From a virus (taxonomy: Duplodnaviria > Heunggongvirae > Uroviricota > Caudoviricetes), in the IMG/VR virus record IMGVR_UViG_2609459769_000019: DNA of 12,920 nucleotides, one strand, 5' to 3'. Positions 2,461 through 4,387 of the stretch are shown here, piece after piece (position 1 is the first letter of the stretch; each line of letters starts with the position of its first letter). The notes beneath the pieces were generated by a model that was not told the origin of the DNA, made no database searches, and worked only from the letters and a program-made list of their open reading frames with translations. The translations under genes were made by a program, and so were the position numbers.

Positions 2461-2934
2461 TTACGGCGTTTCTGTGGCCTTTTTAAAGCGTTTTCTGATT
2501 TCGTCCATGATCTCCTGTTCTGCCACCTGATCAAAGCCCATATACGGACGTGCGCCAATGGCCGCCGGTCCCGGTGGCATACCAGGCAGGCCACCCCACT
2601 GATGAATGGCCGCATAAGGTTCATTTGATCCAATCAGCGCCCAGGTATCGCCATAATCCGTGGTCAGGCGGCGGGCCAGATCGCCGTTCAGTGTCAGGAT
2701 TTTGCCGGGCGTGTATCCCTTACGGGTACGCCACTTGCGGTAAGGATCTGACCAGTCATGCCAGCGTTCGCCGTCCGGCTCTTTTTCCTGTTCAAACGCC
2801 ATTTCTGACGATGACAGAAGACTCTCCGCCACACTGCGGGCCAGGTCTTTTCCGCCGCCCACAAACTGAAGCCGGGCAAACACCCGCTGGAGACGCGTAA
2901 CGTCAACAACGACAGCGGCATCAATGGATGACAT
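2461..2934 (-). CDS. G: Virion morphogenesis protein (Mu G-like), 157 aa
   Basis: ATG at 2934 with GGAGG 5 nt upstream; size and position match Mu G. Confidence 0.7.
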   Translation of the reverse strand: MSSIDAAVVVDVTRLQRVFARLQFVGGGKDLARSVAESLLSSSEMAFEQEKEPDGERWHDWSDPYRKWRTRKGYTPGKILTLNGDLARRLTTDYGDTWALIGSNEPYAAIHQWGGLPGMPPGPAAIGARPYMGFDQVAEQEIMDEIRKRFKKATETP

Positions 2935-2974
2935 ATTGCCTCCGCATAAAGGATGAATATAAAATAAACAGGCG

Positions 2975-3054
2975 GTCAGTGTACGCTTAACTGGTAAAGT
3001 CGGTGCCTGCCTCCGGGTGGATCATGTATGCGGGTTCGACCCCCGCCACTGACC
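2975..3054 (+). other. tRNA-like structural element (7-bp acceptor-like stem plus canonical T-arm) in the F-G intergenic region; not a complete tRNA
   Basis: GTCAGTG (2975-2981) pairs perfectly with CACTGAC (3047-3053); internal 5-bp stem GCGGG/CCCGC (3030-3034 / 3042-3046) closes a 7-nt loop TTCGACC (T-loop-like); I could not fold a convincing anticodon arm by hand and no CCA is encoded. Confidence 0.25.
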
Positions 3055-3055
3055 G

Positions 3056-4387
3056 TTAATCAATTTGTCCTTCCAGCACCTCAAGCATTCCGCCCCGGAT
3101 ATCCGATTTCAGCTTATCCATATTGATAACCCGGTAAGCATTCACAATCACATCCAGTTTGTCGGGCTGACGTTTCAGACTGTACGGTGCATTAACGGCA
3201 ATCTGCACACTGCCATCCTGATTTTCCACGATATACATCAGATTGTTGTGCCGTTTGTCCCACAGTACCGCTTTTGGCCTTGCCAGCATTGCCGGTAAGC
3301 GCCCGAAGTCCTCCGGCGTCAGAGCGATGCCGTCATTCTGATGTTTCACACTGTCCGCATGGAGCACATTTTTACCGCTCATCGCCAGCAGGCGGGCCGG
3401 TGGCGTTCCCGTCCGGCTTTCCACTGCCTGCGCAATGCTTTCAGTCATAAAGCCCAGCGTGCGGATATCGTTACCACCTCGCCGGGTCTGCATGATGTTT
3501 TTTGCCCAGATGCGGAACGCCAGCTGCCGCTCCGGGCTGTTGTTCATCTCCTGAACCACCATTTCCCGTAACGCCGGGCTTTTCACCTCGATCAGTTTGC
3601 GGATCAGCGCCTGGTCTGTGCCGAACGCTGCCGAGCCGGGGTTATATGACCAGCCCACATCCGGTGTCATGGTTCTGGTGCCATCTGAATATGTGGTCAC
3701 CGGCATTTCTCTGACTTCTCCGGTCTGTTTATCCACGCCAGCCTCAACATTGCGGGTGGAGAGATGATCCTCACCGGATGAAACGGATAACCCCATTGCA
3801 TCCAGACGGGCCTGAGACAATGGCCGCACACGGCAGCGGCAGTTCCAGCCATTGGGCGGGTAGTGTGTTTTCCAGAACGGATCGTCATAGCGGAATACCA
3901 GACCGTTAAGGGCGGAATGCGACGGGCGGGTACGGCTGTCCATGACCGCCACATACTGCCAGAACGGATGCGTGTCCGTGTTGTTCATCATCTGCGTGTA
4001 ACGCCCGGCATTGTAAGCCACACGGGTGTTCACGTTGTAAATCAGCGCCAGACGACGGGGACTGCCCAGCTGCACTTCTTCCGCGTTACCGTCGCTGTCC
4101 ACCACAATCTGCTTTCCCCACCATCCCAGCTTTTGCAGGCGTGGCGTCAGCGTGCGGATAAATGCTTTCTGTGAAATTCCCTCATCAATGGCCCGCTGCA
4201 CTTCGGCCTGTAACGTGGTCACCACATCCAGGCGTGCCGCTTTTGCTGCCGTGAATGAGCGGGCATGAACATCCGCGGCTGTTTCGAACCAGTTCCAGCT
4301 GATATGCGCCCCTTTGACACGGAAGTATGCTACCGCCTCTTTTGAGGGAAGCGTGGCGGCATAACCTAAATCAATCCCCTGTGTCAT
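3056..4387 (-). CDS. F: Head morphogenesis protein (Mu F-like, gp30 family), 443 aa
   Basis: ATG at 4387 overlapping the portal gene end by 17 nt; conserved WNCRCRV-type motif; position between portal and G as in Mu. Confidence 0.75.
   Translation of the reverse strand: MTQGIDLGYAATLPSKEAVAYFRVKGAHISWNWFETAADVHARSFTAAKAARLDVVTTLQAEVQRAIDEGISQKAFIRTLTPRLQKLGWWGKQIVVDSDGNAEEVQLGSPRRLALIYNVNTRVAYNAGRYTQMMNNTDTHPFWQYVAVMDSRTRPSHSALNGLVFRYDDPFWKTHYPPNGWNCRCRVRPLSQARLDAMGLSVSSGEDHLSTRNVEAGVDKQTGEVREMPVTTYSDGTRTMTPDVGWSYNPGSAAFGTDQALIRKLIEVKSPALREMVVQEMNNSPERQLAFRIWAKNIMQTRRGGNDIRTLGFMTESIAQAVESRTGTPPARLLAMSGKNVLHADSVKHQNDGIALTPEDFGRLPAMLARPKAVLWDKRHNNLMYIVENQDGSVQIAVNAPYSLKRQPDKLDVIVNAYRVINMDKLKSDIRGGMLEVLEGQID

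Follow-up and report, generated by a model that had tools for sequence, protein, structure and literature searches.

A probable non-decoding tRNA-like RNA gene antisense to head genes F and G of a Mu-like prophage

Why would the late operon of a Mu-like prophage carry, between two of its head genes and on the opposite strand, a sequence that resembles part of a tRNA? The question is posed by a 12,920-nucleotide (nt) stretch of viral DNA (IMG/VR record IMGVR_UViG_2609459769_000019), referred to here as the window, which represents the late region of such a prophage and whose genes are read on the minus strand in the order Mor-family activator, lysozyme, Rz-like, TraR-like, gp27, terminase, portal, F, G and I protease. 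The head genes F (3056..4387, minus strand) and G (2461..2934, minus strand) leave a gap of 121 nt, and it is inside this gap that the tRNA-like element lies on the plus strand, antisense to both; one predicted promoter and this one RNA take up the gap entirely. An earlier reading of the letters alone (the original prediction) had recognized a T arm and an acceptor stem at this place. The element is very probably a conserved, independently transcribed, non-decoding tRNA-like RNA gene. Such a phage-borne RNA has so far been known only as a database label, with no described function, and our best overall explanation, which we hold tentatively and at not quite even chances, is a trans-acting small RNA that is made from the prophage and mimics a tRNA.

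The two helices that the original prediction had drawn, namely a 7-base-pair (bp) stem GTCAGTG (2975..2981)/CACTGAC (3047..3053) and, enclosed by it, a 5-bp GC stem GCGGG/CCCGC around the loop TTCGACC, are both present. What had been taken for the mimic of a tRNA 3′ half is instead a complete tRNA body (2975..3054, plus strand) with acceptor stem, D arm, short variable loop and T arm; the D arm (2984..3001), four extra terminal pairs and a promoter-like TTGCCT-18-TAAAAT (2936..2965) had been overlooked. Read as RNA on the plus strand, the 5′ strand of the acceptor stem (GUCAGUG, 2975..2981) pairs with 3047..3053, and pairs 2–5 of this helix covary extensively in homologues. U8, A9 and the D arm follow (2982..3001, as aligned to the D arm of the Rfam tRNA model), the latter composed of C2984, the stem strand GCUU (2985..2988), the loop AACUGGUA (2989..2996), the stem strand AAGU (2997..3000) and C3001. 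The D loop AACUGGUA carries A14, G18G19 and A21 and is almost invariant among homologues, while its stem covaries (CG/AU, UA/AU); the extra C following A9 is accounted for by the D stem of many relatives, which is a clean 5-bp CGNNU/ANNCG.

Where a tRNA has its anticodon arm, folding predicts a bipartite replacement hairpin (3002..3025). An internal loop separates its proximal pairs 3003.3025, 3004-3024 and 3005-3023 from the distal stem CUGCC/GGUGG (3007..3011 with 3016..3020), on which a UCCG tetraloop (3012..3015) sits. The 4-nt variable loop GUAU (3026..3029) belongs to a U-N-U-A-U motif that is nearly invariant ahead of the T stem in homologues, and its last residue, U3029, is placed by tRNA numbering where it could form the A15:U48 Levitt pair. 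The T arm (3030..3046) then joins the stem GCGGG/CCCGC (3030..3034 with 3042..3046), whose pairs covary (CG/UA/UG; GC/AU), to the loop UUCGACC (3035..3041) with U54, U55, C56, R57 and A58. The nucleotides on which a tRNA elbow depends, i.e. G18G19, U54-U55-C56, A58, U8 and A14, are therefore all found in the window copy. The 3′ segment (3047..3057) consists of the acceptor strand CACUGAC (3047..3053) followed by C73, G74, U75 and U76, which pair with a 5′ extension formed by G-4, G-3, C-2 and G-1 (2971..2974 with 3054..3057). The terminal stem of the window copy thereby reaches 11 bp (2971..2981 with 3047..3057), and because it runs on for these four pairs, position 73 is itself paired (G-1:C73, 2974:3054). 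The 3′ end of the element overlaps the stop codon of F, the complement of which occupies 3056..3058.

Two hallmarks of a decoding tRNA are replaced by something else. Instead of a 5-bp anticodon stem with a 7-nt loop containing U33, the anticodon and a purine at position 37, the fold presents the 4-nt loop UCCG, and no 7-nt anticodon loop can be drawn, as the original prediction had already suspected when it noted the lack of a usable anticodon arm and of CCA. Instead of a single-stranded N73-CCA end, the sequence encodes no CCA after the acceptor 3′ strand, and positions 73–76 are paired with −1 to −4, a pairing backed by covariation. Since a tetraloop-capped hairpin replaces the anticodon arm, the terminal stem is closed and CCA is unencoded, the RNA cannot decode.

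Existing tools register this unusual combination at the edge of their range. The Rfam tRNA model (RF00005; Rfam 15 served as the RNA family library) matches 2975..3054 on the plus strand over its full length with 31.0 bits and E = 8e-5 in a 301-nt search, passing over the place of the anticodon arm as a 24-nt insertion. This agrees with the tRNA-like character first claimed for the element, yet the match is borderline, given a gathering cut-off of 29 bits, and it disappears with default filters in a gathering scan of the whole window, which yielded no families. ARAGORN found 0 tRNA genes and no tmRNA in the window, in line with the earlier view that this is no ordinary functional tRNA, and among related loci it reported no tRNA except a doubtful tRNA-Lys in locus L073. 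At E <= 10, the Rfam search of the region returned only the tRNA model and no tmRNA, C4 or Y RNA family; matches to STnc480, sR55 and DUF3800-III, far under their cut-offs, were set aside as noise. Element-specific families were likewise absent from Rfam 15, and full-text literature searches returned no paper describing the element. Minimum-free-energy folding did not set the region apart from shuffled sequences (z = −0.6, with no difference on either strand), and the complement also folds, its helices being mostly Watson–Crick. As folding energy is uninformative, the case for the element rests on comparative evidence.

This evidence comes from relatives collected by pattern scans and by a covariance model built from 16 variants; the model includes one spurious T-loop pair (U54-C60), which affects scoring slightly and was left out of the pair counts. 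In an alignment of 34 sequences, 94% of the helix cells are paired, compared with 74% in shuffles, none of which (0/500) reaches the observed value, and with 33–49% when the partners are slid. Fifteen of the 18 helix pairs change on both sides, again a result seen in 0/500 shuffles. This alignment was fitted to the covariance model and is hence biased toward structure; in an independent MAFFT alignment of the 16 variants, 89% of helix cells are paired versus 75% in shuffles (0/500). The stems are thus kept and covarying in related prophages, a comparison that the original prediction had proposed, and far from scoring as background or being absent from relatives, the element reaches the 31.0 bits given above and is conserved. 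U8, A14, G18G19, A21 and U54-U55-C56-R57-A58 are invariant or nearly so across 16–34 homologues.

The terminal helix and the replacement hairpin vary in informative ways. The −1:73 pair is kept in 31/34 homologues with six pair types (G-C in 12/34, A-U in 12, U-A in 3, C-G in 2, and G.U or U.G in 2) and the −2:74 pair in 25/34, and the helix as a whole measures 8–16 bp in the family and 10–16 bp in its divergent members. In most of the 34 homologues the replacement hairpin keeps its bipartite layout, the exceptions being a few short arms that form one continuous stem, while its sequences are unrelated between alleles and its loops range from 3 to 14 nt, often as C(UNCG)G. A 7-nt loop occurs in none of the 34 predicted folds; ARAGORN alone draws one, for the third copy in L073. 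The comparison also identifies the strand under selection: on the plus strand, the helices contain 41 G.U as opposed to 3 A.C combinations, and the T-loop and D-loop consensus reads correctly on this strand only. The selected molecule is therefore the plus-strand RNA and not the late mRNA.

What would drive its synthesis is suggested by the DNA just upstream. A promoter scan found a −35-like hexamer TTGCCT (2936..2941), overlapping the Shine–Dalgarno sequence GGAGG of G on the other strand, and, after an 18-nt spacer, a −10-like hexamer TAAAAT (2960..2965), both on the plus strand; from these, transcription is predicted to start at about 2970–2974, the base of the extended terminal stem. Promoter-like hexamers precede every homologue in the F–G gap (−35 forms include TTGCCT, TTGCCC and TTGAAC), scoring 8–10/12 in nearly all gap copies (one scores 7, and the middle copy of L073 scores 6), with spacers of 16–18 nt and −10 elements ending 2–10 nt ahead of the stem base. 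In a 96.7% identical E. coli variant, all four substitutions fall into the promoter spacer and the leader, outside both hexamers. At the other end, separate intrinsic terminators follow the RNA in the L071, L161 and L167 types, while in L165 and L169 the flanks lengthen the terminal helix to ~16 bp, followed by a U-run. The element is accordingly predicted to be an independent gene with its own sigma-70-like promoter.

The gene is both widespread and tightly conserved. An identical 121 nt is found in 173/5426 complete E. coli genomes, mostly of Shiga-toxin-producing strains, where RefSeq labels it ‘tRNA-OTHER’ on the strand opposite F and G. A variant of O157:H7 strains (e.g. PA20; L115:61-181 versus window 2935-3055) has a single substitution, T-loop G57A (window 3038), which leaves a purine in place, and has no RefSeq tRNA annotation in many O157:H7 genomes. 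That a one-base change removes the annotation means that labelling is inconsistent between strains. In one record, the 124 nt of promoter plus RNA show 0 substitutions, in contrast to 4.0% in the flanking G DNA and 5.5% in the F DNA.

The element was found in 28/80 viral loci picked solely for encoding a relative of G, and in all 28 it lies just upstream of G in antisense orientation. A scan with a more degenerate pattern added 38 model matches, 37 of them between F and G and antisense. Most family members score 41–94 bits with the covariance model, while real tRNAs reach ~35 bits: L139 (35.6 bits), for instance, proved to hold ordinary, CCA-bearing tRNAs clustered in an unrelated phage and was excluded. 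The weakest gap copies (L073, L165, L169, L076 and L132; 18–38 bits) were assigned to the family by their position. The element is kept in phages whose F is only 38–45% identical to that of the window, and two genomes of Shewanella species carry it at the same place (F 45% and G 41% identical to those of the window); these two were the only matches in a strict-pattern scan of species-representative genomes, in which the E. coli representative lacks the prophage. Among cultured phages, the window type occurs in only two Stx-phage records, each with an inserted Mu-like region, and blastn of cultured phage genomes with two divergent family members gave no match. Phage Mu itself lacks the element, its F and G overlapping, and where the element is absent from other phages, F and G usually overlap or abut. 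The earlier statement that no such element is known at this place in Mu-type phages hence stands for Mu itself but not for a large Mu-like clade, in which it is a regular feature.

Some copies have left the usual position. Three tandem allelic copies are found at the distal end of an island of 8 kb that is inserted at tRNA-Ile (ileX) and flanked by mug and nfeF in 8 complete E. coli genomes (L033:1661-9926, i.e. NZ_CP075697.1 3433660-3441925; also L002 and L004). Besides an integrase and ash, its gene content comprises two Icd-like proteins, DUF4222, a RepA-family helicase, SSB and PerC, together with a Mor-family protein that shares 44% identity with that of the Mu-like prophage. Structural genes are absent, and the island looks like a possible satellite of Mu-like phages. 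Each of its RNA copies is nearer to a different prophage allele (84–85%, 78% and 80%) than to its neighbouring copies (71–74%), and copies 2 and 3, being promoterless, would need to be cut from a precursor. The third copy (L002:3997-4078, L004:3997-4078) bears a RefSeq/PGAP ‘tRNA-Tyr’ label that is probably wrong: its supposed anticodon loop is the 6-nt UGUACA, carried by a 5-bp stem, and ARAGORN rejects it. In L017 (11859-13334, minus strand), a family copy outside the F–G gap lies directly upstream of, and co-oriented with, a DUF2971 gene, whose 393-aa product matches the PADLOC candidate defence system PDC-S31; RNA copy and gene alike have been inserted, in antisense orientation, behind the gpT head gene. 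L073 (2125-2437, minus strand) holds three tandem copies in the 367-nt F–G gap of one Mu-like phage. Ahead of copies 1 and 3 stands a strong promoter-like TTGTTA-17-TATGAT or TATAAT, that of the middle copy being the weak match mentioned above, and copy 3 is the one called tRNA-Lys(UUU) by ARAGORN, although it has C33 and G37. Judged by their sequences, neither the ‘tRNA-Tyr’ nor the ‘tRNA-Lys’ copy looks like a decoder. Finally, near-identical phages (G 98% identical) carry RNA alleles that are only 77% identical, which means that RNA alleles have been exchanged between phages.

How might such an RNA act? Our preferred scheme of a trans-acting tRNA mimic starts from the identity of 2936..3057 (plus strand) as, very probably, a self-contained small RNA gene within the late operon, its promoter being recognized by sequence match only, whose product is a tRNA-shaped RNA of about 85 nt with all the elbow and acceptor/T-helix nucleotides. 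Having its own sigma-70-type promoter, independent of the late activator, the RNA would probably be made in the lysogen, and since family members exist away from any F/G mRNA, it would be expected to act in trans. The factor that recognizes the tRNA body could then be one that responds to tRNA shape and not to an anticodon. Candidates for such a factor are a tRNA-targeting nuclease or toxin, be it of the host or of a rival phage, or a tRNA-processing enzyme, for which the RNA would serve as a decoy or competitor in phage–host or phage–phage conflict; the tRNA body may also confer tRNA-like stability. Such a decoy or mimic mechanism, which we rate as less likely than not, at something like one chance in three, is favoured because of the accessory-gene behaviour of the element, the turnover of its alleles, its carriage on a satellite-like island and its defence-candidate neighbour. 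More speculatively, and with a fair share of doubt, the family could represent an unrecognized class of phage tRNA-body mimics with allele-specific function, made by Mu-like prophages and taken up in several alleles by a satellite-like island, in which the replacement hairpin sets the specificity and the RNA either disarms shape-reading immune effectors or serves helper–satellite or head-morphogenesis specificity.

Several considerations weigh against the trans-acting mimic. Its partner protein or target can be named only as candidates, and anticodon-reading nucleases are not expected to bind a decoy that has no anticodon loop. The promoter, the start site and lysogenic expression are predictions from sequence, and the E. 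coli type in the window has no plus-strand terminator. Moreover, 65/66 prophage copies sit between F and G in antisense orientation, which would fit a role in cis as well. Other Mu-like lineages have unrelated small-RNA-like units that share this site and orientation, so that antisense transcription, and not mimicry, is perhaps the property under selection.

These last points lead to the main rival, itself doubtful, namely a cis-acting antisense unit through which head-on transcription, or pairing of the RNA with its exact complement in the polycistronic late mRNA, modulates the late operon at the F/G junction. It could work by transcriptional interference, by RNase III cleavage or by uncoupling the translation of G, with the tRNA body as a stability or processing chassis, and the short cis-antisense phage RNAs lambda OOP and P22 sar provide precedents. 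The position of the prophage copies, always between F and G and always antisense (28/28 plus 37/38), speaks for this explanation, as does the way in which the promoter overlaps the ribosome-binding site of G and the 3′ end overlaps the stop codon of F. Lacking a terminator, transcripts of the E. coli type could enter antisense F, and other Mu-like lineages have, in this gap and likewise antisense, unrelated units with terminators. What a cis role does not need, however, are the conserved elbow nucleotides. Neither the triple copy of the island nor the L017 copy has an F/G mRNA with which it could pair. Many lineages possess a terminator that keeps the RNA within the gap, where the only target would be its own complement, and a block at F/G would not stop leaky lysis, as the lysis genes lie upstream of F in the operon. 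We consider it unlikely that the RNA is an allele-specific phage or satellite factor whose variable arm acts as a specificity module for a phage protein, in head morphogenesis or in helper–satellite cross-talk, the three alleles of the island then matching several helper types. Consistent with this idea, each island copy is nearest to a different prophage allele, the Mor-family protein of the island is related to that of the prophage, the RNA gene is located among head-morphogenesis genes, and alleles have been swapped between nearly identical phages. Yet many of the variable arms are a short GC stem with a UNCG tetraloop and offer little to recognize, no co-varying protein was identified, the helper relationship of the island is putative, and phage Mu, like its close relatives, builds its heads in the absence of the RNA.

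The remaining explanations fare worse still. A working tRNA or aminoacyl carrier, produced by RNase P cleavage, 3′ trimming, CCA addition and charging, is very improbable. G-1:C73 is the main HisRS identity element, so that the pair in the window copy would suggest histidine; the promoterless island copies 2 and 3 would have to be cut from a precursor, and PGAP and ARAGORN have labelled an island copy tRNA-Tyr and L073 copy 3 tRNA-Lys. Against this, a standard 5-bp stem with a 7-nt loop and U33 is present in no member, the two labelled copies have, respectively, a 6-nt loop and the residues C33 and G37, and the pairs at −2:74 and beyond bury the 3′ end. The types of the −1:73 pair vary, with G-C in only 12/34, and a common tRNA identity is therefore unlikely. 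Just as hard to sustain is a selected structure in the late mRNA on the minus strand that serves processing, stability or translational coupling between F and G, as the original prediction had suggested in part. The complement does fold, and the element lies between two cistrons of one operon; but the G.U bias and the loop consensus favour the plus strand, the promoters point the other way, and the island and L017 copies stand outside any F–G mRNA. Hardly credible at all is a decaying tRNA pseudogene or a relic integrase attachment site with no present function, the latter having also been raised at the outset. A borderline covariance score, the absence of an anticodon and of CCA, and a 1-nt variant that falls out of the RefSeq annotation would be in keeping with decay. 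Compensatory changes in 15/18 pairs, conserved tertiary nucleotides, a conserved promoter and the complete body in the middle of an operon are not, and neither are zero divergence beside flanks that differ by 4–5.5% and retention where F is as little as 38–45% identical. In addition, no integrase is annotated in the 6–8 kb around the prophage copies, and Mu-type phages transpose and do not integrate site-specifically.

Comparison with known RNAs helps to define what is new about the element. With canonical tRNA (RF00005), it shares the 7-bp acceptor core, the U8-A9 linker, the D-loop residues A14, G18G19 and A21, a 4-nt variable loop, a 5-bp T stem and the UUCRANN T loop; it differs by having neither an anticodon stem-loop nor an encoded CCA, by its terminal stem of 8–16 bp and by a D stem that is often 5 bp. 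The tRNA-Other of Bacillus cereus, a non-decoding ‘pseudo-tRNA’ that is reportedly chromosomal and single-copy and has an anticodon arm and can be charged weakly, is similar in being a tRNA-shaped RNA with a proposed role outside ordinary decoding. The tRNA-like domain of the bacterial Y RNA YrlA, in some cases phage-encoded, is a non-coding elbow mimic that does not serve decoding; the RNA ends in an anticodon-side helix to which Ro60 binds, and its gene lies next to rsr. By contrast, the ends of the element lie in the acceptor helix, its flanking genes are F and G with no rsr nearby, and no Y-RNA match was obtained. C4 of phages P1 and P7 and the CI RNA of P4 are small antisense immunity RNAs of phages and satellites that have tRNA-like features, depend on RNase P and vary between heteroimmune elements, but lack a D/T elbow. 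The island with the RNA copies recalls them in that it also carries Icd-like and ash genes, whereas the element has no Rfam C4 match and no above-chance complementary target in the 12.9-kb window, where a search for antisense targets returned only 9–11-mers at about the rate expected by chance. In tmRNA, the tRNA-like domain is marked by the G3.U70 alanine identity and the lack of a D stem, and a tag reading frame is attached to it; the element has C-G as its 3:70 pair and does possess a D stem, and neither ARAGORN nor Rfam gave a tmRNA match. Engineered ‘tRNA scaffold’ RNAs and eukaryotic mascRNA have a similar design, being tRNA bodies in which the anticodon arm is swapped for a hairpin and which gain processing or stability from the tRNA fold. 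Those are artificial or eukaryotic, however, while the element is natural, phage-borne and evolutionarily conserved.

Temperate transposable phages package tight headful genomes, and yet a whole clade of them devotes about 120 bp to a non-decoding tRNA-shaped RNA; to this clade belongs the Mu-like prophage that is common among Shiga-toxin-producing E. coli. Should this RNA turn out to be a decoy for tRNA-targeting immunity or an RNA of helper–satellite specificity, it would add an RNA-only player to phage–host conflict, as well as a natural example of the ‘tRNA scaffold’ design. On the practical side, annotation pipelines currently label such loci as tRNA-OTHER, as tRNA-Tyr or not at all, an inconsistency that a dedicated covariance model would mend while enabling a census.

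Two observations concern the neighbourhood of the element. Mu-like phages that lack the tRNA-like RNA but have an F–G gap of 100–250 nt carry unrelated small-RNA-like units in the same antisense orientation (L094:2390-2510, L100, L110:2327-2510, L108:2325-2510 and L088:2245-2510, all on the reverse complement), none of which matched Rfam at E <= 0.1. The L094 type consists of a promoter-like sequence and, behind it, a long hairpin (CGGGUGGG...CCCACACCCG) with an intrinsic terminator, and the units of L108 and L088 likewise end in a hairpin and a T-run; the F–G junction may be a hotspot for small RNA genes. On the other side of G, the window contains a 177-nt non-coding gap between G and the protease gene I (2284-2460), and in phage Mu this G–I gap carries an annotated strong gyrase cut site.

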